Shown one piece after another: positions 11,236 to 58,648 of a DNA stretch of 64,000 bases. Source of the stretch: Clostridiales bacterium (GTDB lineage Bacteria; Bacillota; Clostridia; Oscillospirales; Oscillospiraceae); the NCBI GenBank assembly GCA_029265975.1, contig JAJUGN010000004.1, forward strand, positions 9,041 to 73,040, written 5' to 3'. Position numbers and translations under genes: made by a program. Every line of letters begins with the position of its first letter. Position 1 is the stretch's first letter. The notes under the pieces were generated by a model, which worked only from the letters and a program-made list of their open reading frames with translations, had not been told where the DNA came from and made no database searches.

Positions 11236-11428
11236 TGCTTCGTAAGGTTTGAGTTTTCTCGGACGAAAGATGAGCGACATCTCCCGCCCCGGTTCCGGCT
11301 CAGTATCCTGACTAATGCTTCGTCGCGCGGGCCGCCTTCCCGGTTTCATCCAGTGGCATAATGGCCGTAGCTCGGCAAATACAGTTGCGAGACAGCACGG
11401 GATTCTCACCCGTTTCCTGTAACCGAAT
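11236..11428 (-). promoter_or_regulatory. Cobalamin (B12) riboswitch aptamer
   Basis: Minus strand reads ...GGAAACGGGTGAGAATCCCGTGCTGTCTCGCAACTGTA... and B12-box-like GCCACTGG...CCGGGAAGGC. It lies upstream of cobalt uptake genes. Confidence 0.85.
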
Positions 11429-11433
11429 CCGCA

Positions 11434-11463
11434 AATTATAATGTTTTGCAAAACATTATAATT
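11434..11463. repeat. Perfect 30-bp palindrome carrying TATAAT on both strands (operator or divergent -10 candidate)
   Basis: AATTATAATGTTTTGCAAAACATTATAATT is its own reverse complement. It lies just upstream of the riboswitch 5' end. Confidence 0.5.
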
Positions 11464-29098: not shown

Positions 29099-29339
29099 GA
29101 GGCGGGCGCTTTGCGCCCGCCTCAGCTTGTAGAAAAACTTGTTTACAGCAAAAAAGCTTCGCAGAATTTCCGCCACGAATGGCGGAAACAAAGTCAAATC
29201 TGTCGTTTCCGGAGGCGTGTACGTCGGAAATGACACCTCTCATGACGGGCGCGGCAGAGCGGCCGTCATTAAACCCCCTTGTCAAAAAAGCCCTTTTGTT
29301 TTTTTTGACAGTCTGAGGCGGGCGCTTTGCGCCCGCCTC
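29099..29339 (+). mobile_element. Hairpin-duplicating structured element, copy 1 (191-nt unit 29124-29314 plus 25-bp flanking direct repeats)
   Basis: GAGGCGGGCGCTTTGCGCCCGCCTC is present at 29099-29123 and 29315-29339. The internal unit is near-identical to 56490-56680 and 58428-58622. Confidence 0.7.
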
Positions 29340-29447: not shown

Positions 29448-30443
29448 TCATATGAGCTCGCGTTTTTTCAGCCTGATGTCCCGGCCGCAGAAATTCAAAA
29501 CCACATATTCGCCCTTTAGCCTCGAGGCCACCTGAGGCGTGTAGCGCTTATCCAGCTCGTCCCATGAAAGGTTTGAGTTGATGATGGTCTTTTTGCCGTT
29601 TATAAGCCTTGTGTTAATAAGCGTGTAAAGGGCGCTCGAAACCATGCTGGTGAGCATTTCCGTCCCCAGATCGTCGACTATCAGAAGGTCGCAGTTCAAA
29701 AGGCGGTGGACCTTTTCACGGGTTTCCGAGGCGTCCGAGCCTCTTCCGAACTTTTCCTCCTCGAAGGCTGCGAAAATATTGACCGCTGTGTCGTATACGA
29801 CCGAAAAGCCCTTCTCGGAAACGACTTTGGCGATGCTTGTTGAAAGAAAGGTCTTGCCGAGCCCCGTGCCTCCGCTGAGGAAAAGGTTGGGGGAGTCCTT
29901 CCTGAACTCTCTGGCGTATTTTTTGCATTTTTCAAAGATCAGGGACATGGTCTCCCGGGGCGAAACGCCCGTCTGGTCCTTCACGTTGTCGTAATATTCA
30001 AGACAGAAGGTGTTGAAAGTCTCCTGACCGAGCTTCAGACAGGCCGAGAGCTCCTTGCGCTGCTCATCCCTGTAAATGTCCATAAGGCAGCCGCAGGGCT
30101 TTGCGCCCAGAAAGCCGCTGTCGCCGCATTTTTTGCAATTCGGCTCGTCGTCTATGTCCGACTCGCGGCAGCCCGCCGCCGCCAGTATCTCCGAACGCTC
30201 CGCCTGGAGCTTAAGGCTTCTTTTCCGGGCAAGGTCGATCTCCCTCTCCACGTCCAGGCTTCCCGAAACGGCGGTTCCGATCGCGTCCAGCATTATTGAG
30301 CGCAGCTCGGCGTCTATTTCCCGAACCCGCGGGTGTTTTTCGTAGACCATGGCCCTTAGCTTCGCCGCTTTCGCCGCGCGCGCCAGCTTTTCCTCGTTGA
30401 GCCGTTCGATTGCCTGCCTGAGCAGCTTGCCGTCCAAAGACAT
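29448..30443 (-). CDS. dnaI: DnaC/DnaI-type helicase loader ATPase
   Basis: N-terminal Zn motif CKKCGDSGF...CGC, Walker A GGTGLGKTF, Walker B LLIVDDLG. Confidence 0.8.
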   Translation of the reverse strand: MSLDGKLLRQAIERLNEEKLARAAKAAKLRAMVYEKHPRVREIDAELRSIMLDAIGTAVSGSLDVEREIDLARKRSLKLQAERSEILAAAGCRESDIDDEPNCKKCGDSGFLGAKPCGCLMDIYRDEQRKELSACLKLGQETFNTFCLEYYDNVKDQTGVSPRETMSLIFEKCKKYAREFRKDSPNLFLSGGTGLGKTFLSTSIAKVVSEKGFSVVYDTAVNIFAAFEEEKFGRGSDASETREKVHRLLNCDLLIVDDLGTEMLTSMVSSALYTLINTRLINGKKTIINSNLSWDELDKRYTPQVASRLKGEYVVLNFCGRDIRLKKRELI

Positions 30444-42671: not shown

Positions 42672-42762
42672 TATGCTTATATTTGGCAAACCTGCGGAAA
42701 CGCCGGGACGCAAAACTCTAGAGCCTAAGTCGCTTGCGATAAGGCAGTCAGTTGCATGTTCG
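42672..42762 (+). promoter_or_regulatory. c-di-GMP-I (GEMM-I) riboswitch-like aptamer 1
   Basis: GGCAAACCTGCGGAAACGCCGGGACGCAAAACTCTAGAGCC...AAGGCAGTCAGTTGCA matches the GGCAAA / GNRA hairpin / GACGCAAAGC core as recalled from the Vc2 aptamer. Confidence 0.7.
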
Positions 42763-43011: not shown

Positions 43012-43100
43012 AGCTTAAATAAAGGCAAAGCAGGCGAAAGCCTGTGACGCAAAGCTATCAGGGCCCTCGACCTTCGGTCAGGGCAGCCAGTTGCTGCTAT
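43012..43100 (+). promoter_or_regulatory. c-di-GMP-I (GEMM-I) riboswitch-like aptamer 2
   Basis: GGCAAAGCAGGCGAAAGCCTGTGACGCAAAGCTATCAGGGCC...GGTCAGGGCAGCCAGTTGCTGC. Confidence 0.8.
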
Positions 43101-43144: not shown

Positions 43145-43238
43145 AAGTAAAAAGGGCAAAGCAGGCGAAAGCCTGTGACGCAAAGCTATCAGGGCCCTCG
43201 GCCTCCGGTCAGGGCAGCCAGTTGCTGCTATCGTTTCT
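43145..43238 (+). promoter_or_regulatory. c-di-GMP-I (GEMM-I) riboswitch-like aptamer 3
   Basis: Near-identical copy of aptamer 2. The differences (GACCTTCGGTC vs GGCCTCCGGTC) keep the hairpin pairable. Confidence 0.8.
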
Positions 43239-46088: not shown

Positions 46089-46268
46089 GCAGGGCGGCAT
46101 GTGCCGCCCTGCATCAGCTTGTCGAAAAACTTGTTTACAGTAAAAAAGCTTCGCAGAATTTCCGCCACGAATGGCGGAAAAAAGTCAAATCTGTCATTTA
46201 CGGCGGCGTGTACGTCGGAAATGACAGCTCTTATGACGGGCGCGGCAGGGCGGCATGTGCCGCCCTGC
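46089..46268 (+). mobile_element. Hairpin-duplicating structured element, copy 2 (3'-truncated, ~132 nt) with 24-bp flanking direct repeats
   Basis: GCAGGGCGGCATGTGCCGCCCTGC is present at 46089-46112 and 46245-46268. The internal unit matches the first ~130 nt of the other copies. Confidence 0.6.
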
Positions 46269-48434: not shown

Positions 48435-48510
48435 GCGCCCGTGGCTCAACGGATAGAGCATCAGATTCCGGTTCTGAGGGCTGGGGGTTCGAGTCCCTCC
48501 GGGCGTGCCA
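48435..48510 (+). tRNA. tRNA-Arg (anticodon CCG), CCA encoded
   Basis: Manual cloverleaf: acceptor GCGCCCG/CGGGCGT, D arm GCTC/GAGC, anticodon arm TCAGA-TTCCGGT-TCTGA, T arm GGGGG-TTCGAGT-CCCTC, then GCCA. Confidence 0.9.
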
Positions 48511-48697
48511 GAAATAGAAGTCCCGCAGTCGTTGAGATTGCGGGATTTTTCTTTATATATCAACGGTTTGCGGGCTTTTGATGCGAAAATATTTTTTCGA
48601 TTTTGAAAGCCCGTTAGCATTTCCAGAAACATTATTTTCAACGATTTTGCTAACGAAAATGCTAACAAAAAACCGACGAGCATTACGCGCTCGCCGA

Positions 48698-48724
48698 TTC
48701 GAGTCCCTCCGGGCGTGCCAGAAA
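48698..48724 (+). repeat. Direct repeat of the tRNA-Arg 3' end (att-like)
   Basis: TTCGAGTCCCTCCGGGCGTGCCAGAAA occurs at 48488-48514 (within and after the tRNA) and again at 48698-48724. Confidence 0.8.
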
Positions 48725-54954: not shown

Positions 54955-56265
54955 TCAGACGCAGGGGTGAGGGCAGTCGGGGCATCCTCTGAGGCTCTTC
55001 GCGGCCATTATGCGGAATTCGTTTCCGTCGTTCAGAATAACGGGCTTTTCGGCGCCCTTTGCGCAGACCACCGCCTCGTACGAAACTGTTTTGCCGGTGC
55101 GGTCTTTTGCGGTCAGCTCGAGGTGGTTCCTGACGAGGCGCCAGCCCTTTTCGCTCATTATGTGCACCGGTATTTTCACGCCTACCTGGGCTATCGCCTC
55201 CGGTTCTATCCGCGACCTCACCACCCTGGATGCGCAGGACCATATGAGGTCGGCGTTTTTCTGCATGGCGTCGGCGTTCGCCTCGTCGATGCCCGTCGAA
55301 CAGAGCCCGAACTTGTAAATCGTCACCCCGTCCTTTTCGAGTCCCGATATCTCGTTAAGGAGTATGTTGTCCATCCACGCCACTGAAACGGCGATTTTTT
55401 TATAGCCCAGCGCAATCGCGAGCTTCACTCCCGCGAGCTGGTCTATAACTGCGGTGTGCGGAAAAACCGGGATAATCTTCGCCTTGATCGCCGTGTCCAC
55501 GATTTCGCGGGACGGACTGGTCAGAAAAAGCCCCGTCATCCTTTTAACCGCGCCCTGCGTGTTGCTGTCGTCGGTCGTTATTATTGTTCCGAGATTATTG
55601 GATACGATAACCGCGGCGTCAAGAAGACCGCTTCTGAAGGCGGTGCTCATGGTTTCCGAGGCGCCGAACAGCACGTTTGCCTCACAGGAATTTAAGGGGC
55701 GCGAGGTGTCAAAATACCCGCCTTTTATCACTACCTCGTTTATGAGCCTTGTCATCAGCTCCGTCTGGTTGGCGGCGTCGCCGGACTCGACGGATGCAAG
55801 AAGGTTTTCCGCCGTTTTTCCGCCCACTTCCTTAAGCAGCTGGCGCATAAGCGGGCAGTAGCGAATCGGCACGGGGGTTGCTTTGCGCGCCTCCAGACCG
55901 CCCTTTGTCCGCTCTATATAGACAAAGCTGCCGAACATTCTTGTTATATGAATTTCGTTTTCCTCATAGAATTTCTCCAGAGCGTCGAGAAAGGCATTGA
56001 TAAACGGCCGAAGCGCATCTTCGTTTTGGGAGTCCGTCTCAAGCGCAATCTCGTCCCTGCCGATTGCCGGAGCGGAAAAGGAAAAAGCTCCCTCTGCAAG
56101 GCTCATAGCCTCGCCTATAAGGCGGTTCAGAACCTCGCCGCTTATAGGCTCGGGAATTGAAAAATCGGAGAAGTACCTGGAAAGATCCCTGTTTTGCTTG
56201 CGAAAAAATACCCTGATCCCGCTTTCGGTTTTTTCGATTCTGTATTCAGCCGTTGTTTTTTTCAT
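54955..56265 (-). CDS. Hypothetical protein, possibly DUF2099 (methanogenesis-marker-8-like), with C-terminal CPDCPHPC motif
   Basis: GGGGTGA RBS. The segment FGASETM...GLLDAAVIVSNNLGTIITTD resembles DUF2099 from memory only. Confidence 0.6.
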   Translation of the reverse strand: MKKTTAEYRIEKTESGIRVFFRKQNRDLSRYFSDFSIPEPISGEVLNRLIGEAMSLAEGAFSFSAPAIGRDEIALETDSQNEDALRPFINAFLDALEKFYEENEIHITRMFGSFVYIERTKGGLEARKATPVPIRYCPLMRQLLKEVGGKTAENLLASVESGDAANQTELMTRLINEVVIKGGYFDTSRPLNSCEANVLFGASETMSTAFRSGLLDAAVIVSNNLGTIITTDDSNTQGAVKRMTGLFLTSPSREIVDTAIKAKIIPVFPHTAVIDQLAGVKLAIALGYKKIAVSVAWMDNILLNEISGLEKDGVTIYKFGLCSTGIDEANADAMQKNADLIWSCASRVVRSRIEPEAIAQVGVKIPVHIMSEKGWRLVRNHLELTAKDRTGKTVSYEAVVCAKGAEKPVILNDGNEFRIMAAKSLRGCPDCPHPCV

Positions 56266-56453
56266 AATATTCACCCCGATGACGGCATGCGGAAGCCTCT
56301 GTCCCGGCCTGCGGCATCGCGTCAGGCGAGCCGGGAAGAGGAGCCCGTTTTTTTCCATTGTATCATTTCAAAGCCTTTTCGTATACGACGATTTTTTGCT
56401 ATTAAAACATTAATTTTTTAATTTTACAATATCTTATTTACCGGGCTATATTA

Positions 56454-56716
56454 TGGTATAATATCTGCAAAACAGATATTATACCATGCAGCTTGTCAAA
56501 GAACTTGTTTGCAGCAAAAAAGCTTCGCGGAATTTCCGCCACGAATGGCGGAAAAAAGTCAAATCTGTCATTTCCGGCGGCGTGTACGTCGGGAATGACA
56601 CCTCTCATGACGGGCGCGGAAGAGCGGCCGTCATTAAACCCCCTTGTCAAAAAAGCCCTTTGGGCTTTTTTGACAGTCTGTGGTATAATATCTGCAAAAC
56701 AGATATTATACCATGC
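56454..56716 (+). mobile_element. Hairpin-duplicating structured element, copy 3 (191-nt unit 56490-56680 plus 36-bp flanking direct repeats)
   Basis: TGGTATAATATCTGCAAAACAGATATTATACCATGC at 56454-56489 and 56681-56716. The unit has imperfect TIRs and four serial hairpins. Confidence 0.75.
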
Positions 56717-56885: not shown

Positions 56886-58397
56886 ATGCTGACAAAAGTA
56901 AAAGTTGAAAACGGCCTTGTGGAAGGCCTGCCCGCCGCCGACCCCAGAATTACCTCCTTCAAGGGAATCCCCTTCGCGGCTCCTCCCACGGGCGAAAACC
57001 GATGGAGGGCGCCGCAGCCGGCCAAAAACTGGGAGGGGGTGCTGAAAGCGTACAAGTTCGGACCTATTTCCATGCAGCACAAGCCGGGAGAAGACCCGGA
57101 CAACATCTATTCGCGTGAATGGAACGTAAACCCGGAAATAGAGATGGACGAGGATTCGCTGCACCTCAACGTATGGACTCCGGCAAAAAGCGCGGACGAA
57201 AGGCTGCCGGTATTCGTATGGTACTTCGGAGGGGGGCTTCAGGAGGGCAACACGGCTGAAATGGAGTTCGACGGCGAACGCATAGCGAGGCGCGGAATAG
57301 TGGTGGTAACGGTCAATTACAGGCTGAACGTTTTCGGATTTCTCTGCCATCCCGAGATAAGCGCCGAAAATCCCGAGGCGCCGGCCAATTTCGGAAACCT
57401 TGACCAGCAGTTCGCCACGCGCTGGGTAAAGCGGAATATAGCGGCGTTCGGCGGCGACCCCGAGAATATAACGATAGGCGGTCAGTCGGCGGGTGGCGGA
57501 AGCGTGATGTCCCAGGTCATGTGCCTGAATAACGAGGGGCTGTTTCAGAAGGCCATAGTTGACAGCGGAGTATCAAGGGCGGCTTATCCGGGGAGCATGT
57601 TCCGCCCGCCTAAGACACTGGCGCAGGCAGAGGAGGAAGGGGTCAGGTTCTTCGAGTATCTGGGCGTTTCATCCCTGGCCGAGGCGCGGGCGCTTGACGC
57701 GTTTTACATAAGGGACAAGGCGATAGAATACAAGGGGCGCTGGGGCACCGTTTCGGACTGCAAATTCAACTTCGGAAACAACAACGAGCTCTTTATTGAA
57801 AATAAGTGCATCCGGATACCTATGATGTTCGGGCATACGCCGGTCGAGTTTCTCGAAAGGCCGAACGTAAATACGGCCGAGGAATTCAGGGCGTTTGCAA
57901 GGGAAAATTACGGCGAATACGCGGACGAGTTCCTGAGGATATGCTCATCCTCAAACGGAGCCGTAACCGAAATGCTTTATAAAGCAACAAGCAGCATTCT
58001 GGAGCATTCCATACGTCTTTTCGCGAGGGCCAGGGCGAAAACGGGCAACGATACGCCGCTTTATTACTGGGTGTTCCAGCCGGAGATACCTGGATGGGAC
58101 AATCCGGGCGCTTTCCACTCCTCGGACCTCTGGTTTTTCTTCGAGACGCTCGCGAAATGCTGGCGGCCCTTTGTGGGGAAACATTACGACCTGGCGCGGC
58201 AGATGTGTAATTACTGGGCGAACTTTATACGTTCGGGCGATCCCAACGGCAAAGACGCGGACGGCAGCGAAATGCCGTTCTGGAAGCCGTTCACGGAGGC
58301 GGAGCCTTACAGGATGTGGTTTAAGGACAAAGCCTTCCCGAGCGTCGATCCTCCGAGCGAGCTGATGAAATTCCTTCTTGACAGAAACTCAAAATAA
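56886..58397 (+). CDS. Type-B carboxylesterase/lipase (PnbA-like)
   Basis: FKGIPFAAPP, GGQSAGG nucleophile elbow, about 500 aa. Confidence 0.9.
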   Translation: MLTKVKVENGLVEGLPAADPRITSFKGIPFAAPPTGENRWRAPQPAKNWEGVLKAYKFGPISMQHKPGEDPDNIYSREWNVNPEIEMDEDSLHLNVWTPAKSADERLPVFVWYFGGGLQEGNTAEMEFDGERIARRGIVVVTVNYRLNVFGFLCHPEISAENPEAPANFGNLDQQFATRWVKRNIAAFGGDPENITIGGQSAGGGSVMSQVMCLNNEGLFQKAIVDSGVSRAAYPGSMFRPPKTLAQAEEEGVRFFEYLGVSSLAEARALDAFYIRDKAIEYKGRWGTVSDCKFNFGNNNELFIENKCIRIPMMFGHTPVEFLERPNVNTAEEFRAFARENYGEYADEFLRICSSSNGAVTEMLYKATSSILEHSIRLFARARAKTGNDTPLYYWVFQPEIPGWDNPGAFHSSDLWFFFETLAKCWRPFVGKHYDLARQMCNYWANFIRSGDPNGKDADGSEMPFWKPFTEAEPYRMWFKDKAFPSVDPPSELMKFLLDRNSK

Positions 58398-58401
58398 AGC
58401 C

Positions 58402-58648
58402 GGGGACCGCCTTTTTGGGCGGTCCCCGCAGCTTGTCAAAAAACTTGTTTACAGCAGAAAAGCTTCGCAGAATTTCCGCCGCGACCGGCGGAAACAAACA
58501 CAAATCTGTCATTTCCGGCGGCGTTTACGTCGGAAATGACACCTCTCATGACGGGCGCGGCATAGCGGCCGTAATGCAGCCCCCTTGTCAAAAAAGCCCT
58601 TTGGGCTTTTTTGACAGTCTTAGGGGACCGCCTTTTTGGGCGGTCCCC
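58402..58648 (+). mobile_element. Hairpin-duplicating structured element, copy 4 (195-nt unit 58428-58622 plus 26-bp flanking direct repeats)
   Basis: GGGGACCGCCTTTTTGGGCGGTCCCC at 58402-58427 and 58623-58648. The unit is colinear with copies 1 and 3. Confidence 0.75.

Follow-up and report, generated by a model that had tools for sequence, protein, structure and literature searches.

Two members of the IS1182 insertion-sequence (IS) family, IS1272 and TnSha1, target hairpins or terminators without sequence specificity (PMC4923244, PMC5678879). The family as such is described as targeting palindromes or hairpins without sequence specificity in a passage of PMC4923244 that cites Siguier 2015, and the direct repeats listed for it in ISfinder, as quoted in PMC7335449, are 2-60 bp in length. 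Duplication of a whole stem-loop has been published as one theoretical branch of the cruciform model (PMC5678879, Fig. 13, pathway b). Here we describe a small repeated element in a 64,000-nucleotide (nt) stretch of a Clostridiales genome of the Oscillospiraceae (GCA_029265975.1, contig JAJUGN010000004.1, positions 9,041 to 73,040), the whole of which is called the window below. Taken together, our data indicate, with a probability of roughly 0.88, that the element is a non-coding MITE (miniature inverted-repeat transposable element) of approximately 193 bp related to IS1182-family ISs, and a new member of a known family. Elements bounded by these terminal inverted repeats (TIRs), whether autonomous or miniature, go in at the base of stem-loops that are unrelated to one another in sequence, and the single stem-loop of the empty site is then found on each side of the element. 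The element comes from an already known transposon family and does not represent a novel type of mobile element. A preliminary description of this DNA, made from the letters alone, knew of no family that behaves in this way. That opinion has to be given up: the ends are those of the IS1182 family, for which hairpin targeting is published and repeats of the above lengths are listed.

Element copies and their flanking stem-loops

A repeat search of the whole window returned 4 perfect direct-repeat pairs, which hug 4 copies of the element: 25 nt at 29099/29315, 24 nt at 46089/46245, 36 nt at 56454/56681, and 26 nt at 58402/58623. As had been noted in the preliminary description, each of the 4 flanking repeats is a different whole perfect stem-loop, 24-36 nt long. 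Their stems are of 10-14 bp. The 36-mer TGGTATAATATCTGCAAAACAGATATTATACCATGC holds a 14-bp stem and occurs exactly twice, at 56454-56489 and 56681-56716, when shuffled sequences lead one to expect 0 occurrences. The sequence between these 36-mers was found again on the + strand at 29124-29315 (93% identity), 58430-58621 (91% identity), and 46116-46254 (92% identity). All 4 copies therefore have the same (+) orientation. Recurrence at three other loci had been claimed; the copies at 29124 and 58430 are full, and the one at 46116 has lost its 3' end. The features at the 4 loci are as follows.

29099 to 29122, no strand: left copy of a duplicated terminator hairpin, GAGGCGGGCGCTTTGCGCCCGCCT(C)
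29123 to 29315, + strand: full MITE copy, 193 nt, between convergent genes
29316 to 29339, no strand: right copy of the 29099 hairpin (maximal repeat 29315-29339)
46089 to 46112, no strand: left copy of a duplicated hairpin, GCAGGGCGGCATGTGCCGCCCTGC, 24 nt
46115 to 46244, + strand: 3'-truncated MITE copy; left TIR and about 130 nt present, right third and right TIR gone
46245 to 46268, no strand: right copy of the 46089 hairpin
56454 to 56488, no strand: left copy of a duplicated target stem-loop with a 14-bp stem and a CAAAA loop, 35-36 nt
56489 to 56680, + strand: full MITE copy, 192 nt, with TIRs and internal stem-loops
56489 to 56504, + strand: left TIR of this copy, CAGCTTGTCAAAGAAC
56533 to 56554, 56566 to 56600, and 56607 to 56634: internal stem-loops of this copy
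56644 to 56676: end hairpin of this copy, an internal TIR-like copy paired with the right TIR
56665 to 56680, + strand: right TIR of this copy, CTTTTTTGACAGTCTG
56681 to 56715, no strand: right copy of the 56454 stem-loop (target-site duplication)
58402 to 58427, no strand: left copy of a duplicated terminator hairpin, GGGGACCGCCTTTTTGGGCGGTCCCC, 26 nt
58429 to 58621, + strand: full MITE copy, 193 nt, between a convergent esterase gene (+) and PilZ-domain gene (-)
58623 to 58648, no strand: right copy of the 58402 hairpin

The maximal repeat at 29099-29123 is 25 nt in length, with one ambiguous nucleotide shared with the first base of the TIR. The deletion in the 46115 copy ends at a GCAG(A/G)GCGGC microhomology with the right copy of the hairpin. 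The neighbors of the 29123 copy are a SecG-like gene upstream (+) and a gene for 331 amino acids at 29448-30443 (-). The 56454 stem-loop sits in a divergent promoter region, between an open reading frame (ORF) at 54955-56358 (-) and the esterase gene at 56886-58397 (+); a role as terminator was considered for it and rejected, as it is an AT-rich palindrome between divergent genes.

Empty sites in a sister genome

At 90% identity, the window esterase clusters with one other protein, encoded on the 162-kb contig JAJUHC010000002.1 (GCA_029268065.1). This metagenome-assembled genome (MAG) is the third from the study that also yielded the two MAGs discussed below, and its gene order matches that of the window. 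The element was present at none of the 4 orthologous sites, and a single hairpin was present at 3 of them, which is the outcome that the preliminary description had proposed looking for in sister strains.

Sister site for 29124: one hairpin, GAGGCAGGCGCCGAAGCGCCTGCCTC, no element; flanks recognizably orthologous
Sister site for 46116: one hairpin, GCATGGCGGCGCGGGACGCGCCGCCATGC, no element
Sister site for 58430: one hairpin, GGGGACCGCTTTTCAGGCGATCCCC, no element
Sister site for 56490: no element and no duplication; half of the palindrome only

An exact look-up of the window esterase in the contig index gave no record. A further locus with an 81%-identical esterase homologue (L032; loci outside the window carry L numbers) was unusable as an empty site, its gene context being different. 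The element in the window has the properties by which MITEs are defined: it is small (less than about 300 bp), non-coding, and TIR-bounded, it has target duplications and many dispersed copies, and it shows presence/absence polymorphism.

Element ends and internal fold

The element begins with CAGCTTGTCAAAGAAC and ends with CTTTTTTGACAGTCTG, which form a terminal inverted repeat. Across 25 near-full-length copies, the conserved ends were CAGCTTGTCAAAAAAC and GTTTTTTGACAGTCTG, a 16-bp inverted repeat with two mismatches; the TIR overall is 16-18 bp, CAG(C/A)(T/C)TGTC(A/G)AAAAA. The preliminary description was right that such a repeat exists; it is slightly longer than the approximately 14 bp given there and starts one base earlier, with the C of CAGCTTG rather than at AGCTTG. 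The right end is itself a hairpin of 13-15 bp, in which the terminal repeat is paired with an internal sequence that resembles the TIR, CTTGTCAAAAAAGCCC.

The four internal stem-loops described earlier are real. The + strand of the element folds at -82.5 kcal/mol (z = -7.2), and in a consensus fold from 20 copies 51 pairs are retained, of which compensatory changes maintain 6. G-U pairing in the fold is biased toward the + strand. The internal stem-loops may be former target hairpins that were captured; a composite element described below (L024) illustrates how a hairpin can come to lie inside. Alternatively, they may have a function of their own.

A fold of such stability, with conserved stem-loops, some compensatory changes, and G-U pairs that favor one strand, would also be expected of a structured small-RNA gene or a regulatory RNA, and the doubled hairpins would then stem from local duplication or recombination. 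A weak, TIR-less relative in Vescimonas fastidiosa pMM35_01, the sole match when the element was compared with plasmids by blastn, points the same way. It is 75% identical to the first two internal stem-loops of the MITE (L033 3001-3089), has compensated stem changes and no recognizable TIRs, and is flanked by a glpP antiterminator gene and an operon for glycerol-3-phosphate dehydrogenase. Against an RNA gene, the preliminary description's suggested comparison with Rfam yielded no described RNA family: with Rfam 15 the window had no relevant match at the gathering score, and such matches as appeared up to E = 10 were below threshold and due to chance. There are, moreover, dozens of copies per genome at unrelated loci with a different flanking hairpin each, and other MITE subfamilies are alike in their ends only, with wholly different interiors. 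As the entire explanation, an RNA gene is very unlikely and is contradicted by the empty orthologous sites; the data leave room for an RNA role on top of mobility.

Autonomous relatives and their transposase

The preliminary description had called for a longer autonomous element with the same ends, and such elements were found. Full-length ISs of about 1.5 kb with the ends of the MITE (CAGACTGTC[A/G]AAAAA...) encode an IS1182-family transposase. In a metagenome locus, L136, a hairpin is followed by CAGACTGTCAAAAAAC and then by an ORF that encodes the N-terminal portion of a transposase of the IS1182 family (Pfam DUF772; NF033551, E = 9e-47). Homologues of this ORF lie within complete elements of about 1.5 kb that have two ORFs, DUF772 and then DDE_Tnp_1_6. 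The best match of the IS ORFs at L136, L157, L158, L162, and L164 was NCBIfam NF033551 (E from 1e-44 to 3e-64), and ORF1 and ORF2 jointly cover positions 8-488 of that profile.

Whole stem-loops are duplicated around these ISs also. The copy at L158 3927-5442 has perfect 18-bp TIRs, CAGACTGTCGAAAAAGCC, at both ends and a 19-nt hairpin, AAGTAGGCAAAGCCTACTT, on each side; that at L162 2427-3924 is flanked by AAACAGGACCCGCAAAGGTCCTGTTT, a 26-nt hairpin duplication; and that at L164 2426-3942 has a 35-nt hairpin duplication. The exact end CAGACTGTCAAAAAAC is borne by L157 and L136. The IS ends read CAGACTGTCAAAAAACCC in L157 and L136 and CAGGCTGTCAAAAAAG in L162, and the MITE ends read CAGCTTGTCAAA(G/A)AAC and CAGACTGTCAAAAAAG, with CAGACTGTCGAAAAAG in some copies. 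The TIRs of the MITE and of the autonomous IS1182-type elements match. An IS1182-type transposase lies between these TIRs in the metagenome relatives, and the copies in the window are non-coding. An empty site for the L158 IS was sought through an 85% homologue of its neighbor; the intergenic region was too diverged.

Some candidates were rejected and some searches were negative. Long ORFs beside lone TIRs in L040, L053, L062, L066, and L116 were neighboring genes or spurious frames, and a 2.2-kb TIR pair in L130 was dismissed, the left match being due to chance within a gene. Among the first 34 loci, an all-against-all comparison gave no long repeats and tblastn with the IS1272 transposase gave no transposase. 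No IS1182 element was found in 50 kb of pBtoxis. A search of the translated ends of the MITE and of a second small element, B (below), for a transposase C-terminus gave nothing informative.

The transposase also bears on several other origins for the MITE. The IS1634 group of IS4 has long variable repeats. The IS1202 family likewise has unusually long duplications of 16-29 bp (PMC10132070, PMC10045372), and a MITE of one of these two families would account for repeats of such length. This is most unlikely and already contradicted by the transposase between these TIRs, for ends identical to those of the MITE bound ORFs that best match IS1182 (NF033551, DUF772 plus DDE_Tnp_1_6) and not rve-type or IS4 transposases. 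The reported ends of the IS1202 family are 5'-TG...CA-3' (stated for ISHahy13, PMC10045372) versus CAG...CTG here, and its duplications fall into discrete length classes with no hairpin targeting reported, whereas those seen here extend over 19-60 nt and track the palindrome.

In length and palindromic character the duplicated unit is similar to a CRISPR repeat, which brings to mind insertion by a Cas1-type integrase (casposase or CRISPR-adaptation-like) that copies an entire repeat of 24-37 bp, often a palindromic one. Integration by Cas1-Cas2 has been reported beside cruciform-forming sequences. We give this origin almost no credence: no cas1 gene is linked to any copy, the autonomous elements with these ends encode a DDE transposase of the IS1182 type, and the duplication reported for casposons is fixed at 14-15 bp. 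It is equally hard to credit a single-strand HUH (IS200/IS605-type) palindrome-associated element or the remnant of a class C group II intron. Both kinds of element associate with hairpins or terminators, but neither makes target duplications or has TIRs of this type, and the MITE has both. IS200/IS605-derived elements are marked by subterminal hairpins in place of TIRs, and class C group II introns by RNA domains of the intron together with a reverse transcriptase. The MITE has no linked gene for a reverse transcriptase or for TnpA(Y1), and there was no Rfam match to a group II intron. Duplication of an att site by an integrase was considered and dropped.

Copies in other genomes and metagenomes

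When one genome per species was scanned with a sequence pattern, the element turned up in the MAGs JAJUHS (bin70) and JAJUHD (bin55), both from one study, and in the isolate Sporobacter termitidis DSM 10068, the copies of which are a divergent form, also with stem-loop duplications. Most of the 25 near-full-length copies (two MAGs plus window) have duplicated stem-loop flanks that differ from site to site. When metagenomes were scanned with the end sequence, TIR-bounded small elements of 162, 192-195, 209, 233, 260, 342, 361, 410, and 836 bp were recovered; most of them resemble the window element in their ends only and differ completely in their interiors.

In all, 76 TIR-bounded intervals were detected, and both flanks were available for about 70. 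Stem-loop direct repeats of 19-60 nt flank about 40 of these 70, with the base of the stem 0-2 nt from the element ends. The duplications vary continuously in length between 19 and 60 nt, in step with the palindromes. A few targets that are not hairpins had 7-bp duplications, GAGTATG at L133 903-1066, L154 6682-6844, and L155 3469-3632, and CTATATT at L151 1536-1728, which suggests that on ordinary duplex DNA the transposase has a default stagger of about 7 bp. These targets, stem-loop duplications of 19-60 nt and about 7 bp at non-hairpin sites, are as expected of the IS1182 family. The proposal in the preliminary description that the element inserts at stem-loops by shape and duplicates the hairpin is borne out by the empty sites, by the approximately 40 further insertions, and by the autonomous ISs.

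Some of the copies that have different hairpins, or none, on their two sides are plainly nested or composite. Element B (about 135 nt) was found at L024 2372-2783, L028 7757-7890 (-), and L007 4-141 and has only the right end, GTTTTTTGACAGTCTG, in common with the MITE. In L024, an inverted B, a hairpin, and a MITE make up a composite of 345 bp with perfect inverse ends and hairpin repeats of 33-34 nt on its flanks; being bounded by the hairpin repeat, the composite therefore moved as a single unit. In L164 and L096, the target is the end hairpin of a resident element. The flanking direct repeat at L015 1108-1420 is about 55-60 nt long and covers two adjacent hairpins, and the stagger can therefore exceed one stem-loop.

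Many of the contigs from JAJUHS and JAJUHD (L001-L031), which are short-read MAGs, start or stop inside the MITE. Some copies, among them L018 and L013, stand between two hairpins that are unrelated to each other, which would fit joins made across the repeat during assembly. The MITE is a systematic breakpoint for k=141 assemblies.

One Sporobacter locus, L008, was examined as a candidate IS on account of 27-nt hairpin repeats 1.5 kb apart, and was rejected: a DnaJ-like gene lies between unrelated repeats that resemble repetitive extragenic palindromes (REPs). The REP-like palindrome at L008 3284-4880, GTCATTCCCGCGAAGGCGGGAATCC, is present in several copies and adjoins a tandem array of CCGCCCGGTATTGTGCCGTA with a 20-bp period and about 7-8 copies.

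Proposed mechanism

The MITE would be mobilized in trans by an IS1182-family DDE transposase encoded elsewhere in the genome. The transposase would pick its target by structure, most simply an extruded cruciform; strand transfer is predicted at the 5' feet, the stagger would equal the length of the palindrome, and gap repair would copy the whole stem-loop to both sides. Were the 3' feet attacked, the hairpin would be deleted, as in IS1272 and TnSha1. Both neighboring genes would retain an intact terminator or palindrome, and insertions would therefore be nearly neutral and accumulate in intergenic regions. From the anatomy of the insertions we infer that the neighbors keep their terminator or operator.

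Alternatively, the same element and an IS1182-family transposase could act on a hairpin folded while DNA is briefly single-stranded (on the template of the lagging strand, or in a transcription bubble at a terminator) rather than on a cruciform extruded from supercoiled duplex DNA, with the duplication made through replication or repair. The common strand of all 4 window copies would fit such a target, as would the better folding of the + strand of the element, with its G-T/G-U pairs; terminators make up most of the targets, and R-loops or stalled complexes there could lay single strands open. Orientation is mixed, however, within single contigs of the relatives (L012 and L017; L010, L013, L014, and L027, from one contig). 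DDE transposases of the IS5/IS1182 type work on duplex DNA. Symmetric duplication with both cuts at the base of the stem is what is predicted for attack on a four-way junction (PMC5678879), and the insertion of IS1272 in both orientations has been read as a lack of orientation bias (PMC4923244). We regard a single-stranded target as rather unlikely.

Five points weigh against the reading that the element is an IS1182-related MITE that inserts at and duplicates extruded stem-loops. First, about 30 of the approximately 70 TIR-bounded elements lack identical flanking hairpins and have different hairpins or none; such flanks can be explained by nesting, by recombination between copies, or by metagenome assembly joins, none of which is proved. 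Second, the hairpins at Sporobacter L011 4255-4470 have the same stems and reverse-complemented loops (AAA versus TTT); this duplication is inverted rather than direct, and simple gap repair does not predict it. Third, the transposase is split into two ORFs in all 3 complete IS copies, which could reflect programmed frameshifting or recoding, or decay. Fourth, as the preliminary description had stated for the window, no transposase gene was detected there, nor in 280 kb of closely related contigs, by tblastn with the IS1272 and ISClbu1 transposases; for this reason, mobilization in trans in this genome is something that we infer. Fifth, the data give no means of telling a duplex-DNA cruciform from a hairpin formed by a single strand.

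The split ORFs span 4001-5417 in L158, 2501-3903 in L162, 2501-3914 in L164, and 71-1491 in L157, and the two ORFs of L162 overlap by 4 nt.

It is also conceivable, if rather doubtful, that two things hold jointly: that the true substrate of the IS1182 lineage is the extruded cruciform (a four-way junction), attacked with a polarity opposite to that of IS1272, and that the internal stem-loops of the MITE are active. The stem-loops show strand-biased G-U pairing and compensatory changes. One transposase family could then give both hairpin deletion and hairpin duplication, and the stem-loops could act as an RNA of about 150 nt or as DNA structures in transposition or in the regulation of neighboring genes.

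Other features of the window

The last 27 nt of a tRNA-Arg(CCG) gene (48488-48514) are exactly repeated 210 bp downstream, at 48698-48724 (region 48435-48724), and the 183 nt between the repeats are AT-rich and non-coding. The pair resembles an attL/attR scar left by an integrative element that targeted the tRNA and of which almost all has since been deleted. Three cyclic di-GMP-I riboswitch aptamers follow each other in close succession on the + strand (42675-42759, 43014-43098, and 43145-43229), the last two within a 131-bp tandem repeat. A cobalamin riboswitch lies at 11280-11442 (-).

Comparison with known systems

Within the literature searched, which did not cover the principal IS reviews, there was no description of an IS1182-derived MITE family and no set of matched empty and filled sites showing duplication of a whole stem-loop; the stem-loop-duplicating outcome has so far been only a hypothetical pathway for the IS1182 family. 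The data set assembled here comprises 4 insertions, 3 matched single-hairpin empty sites, approximately 40 further insertions, and 3 autonomous copies. It provides natural evidence that the secondary structure of the target, rather than a fixed stagger, sets the target-site duplication of a DDE transposase. For annotation, terminators that are doubled on either side of structured repeats of about 190 bp in Oscillospiraceae and related gut or bioreactor Clostridia are to be read as transposon footprints, not as small-RNA genes or regulatory tandem terminators, and the MITE repeats break short-read assemblies.

Other bacterial MITEs (Correia/NEMIS, RUP, Nezha, and others) are likewise small, non-coding, TIR-bounded, multi-copy, intergenic, strongly folded, and mobilized in trans. 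Their duplications are short and fixed (e.g., TA), whereas the length and sequence of the duplication here are set by the secondary structure of the target. ISs that target REPs (IS1397, ISKpn1, ISPpu9/10, and IS621) also insert into extragenic palindromes, but they recognize one REP sequence, insert within it, and make little or no duplication; here, any stem-loop is used and is copied whole. The IS1202 family is similar in being a family of DDE elements with unusually long duplications (16-29 bp). It differs in its IS481/IS3-related transposase, its TG...CA ends, and the lack of reported hairpin targeting, and its duplication classes of 3-6, 15-18, or 24-29 bp set it apart from the continuous range found here.

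The closest likeness is to an Oscillospiraceae-associated lineage of the IS1182 family (NF033551) with the ends CAGACTGTC(A/G)AAAAA, which has the same TIRs as the MITE. The right end of the MITE, GTTTTTTGACAGTCTG, is like the ends of that lineage, ...TTTTCGACAGTCTG and CAGACTGTCAAAAAAC. Both the MITE and these ISs have an end hairpin formed with an internal TIR-like copy, as does ISClbu1, and both duplicate the whole stem-loop, with repeat lengths within the listed 2-60 bp. In contrast to the ISs, the MITE is about 193 bp long and non-coding, with an interior of three conserved stem-loops that is unrelated to the IS interior, and neither the window nor the fragments from its closest relatives contained an autonomous copy.

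Similarity to the other described members of the family is looser. The IS1272 TIR, GAGTCTGGGACATAAA, agrees with CAGACTGTCAAAAAAC at 9 of 16 positions, and ISClbu1 has the TIRs GGGGCTGTATCAAA and hairpin-forming ends; a CTG...CA(A/T)AA core is common to IS1272, ISClbu1, and the ends of the MITE. IS1272 and TnSha1 of staphylococci likewise target DNA hairpins or terminators of any sequence (22-30 bp) and insert at the stem. However, they delete the stem-loop wholly or partly and make no duplication (PMC4923244, PMC5678879), whereas here the stem-loop is not replaced: it stands on both sides of all 4 window copies and of approximately 40 others. In the published model, the polarity of attack here is opposite to that of IS1272 and TnSha1, and the contrast between the hairpin-deleting and the hairpin-duplicating elements could reveal what decides the polarity of strand transfer at a cruciform.

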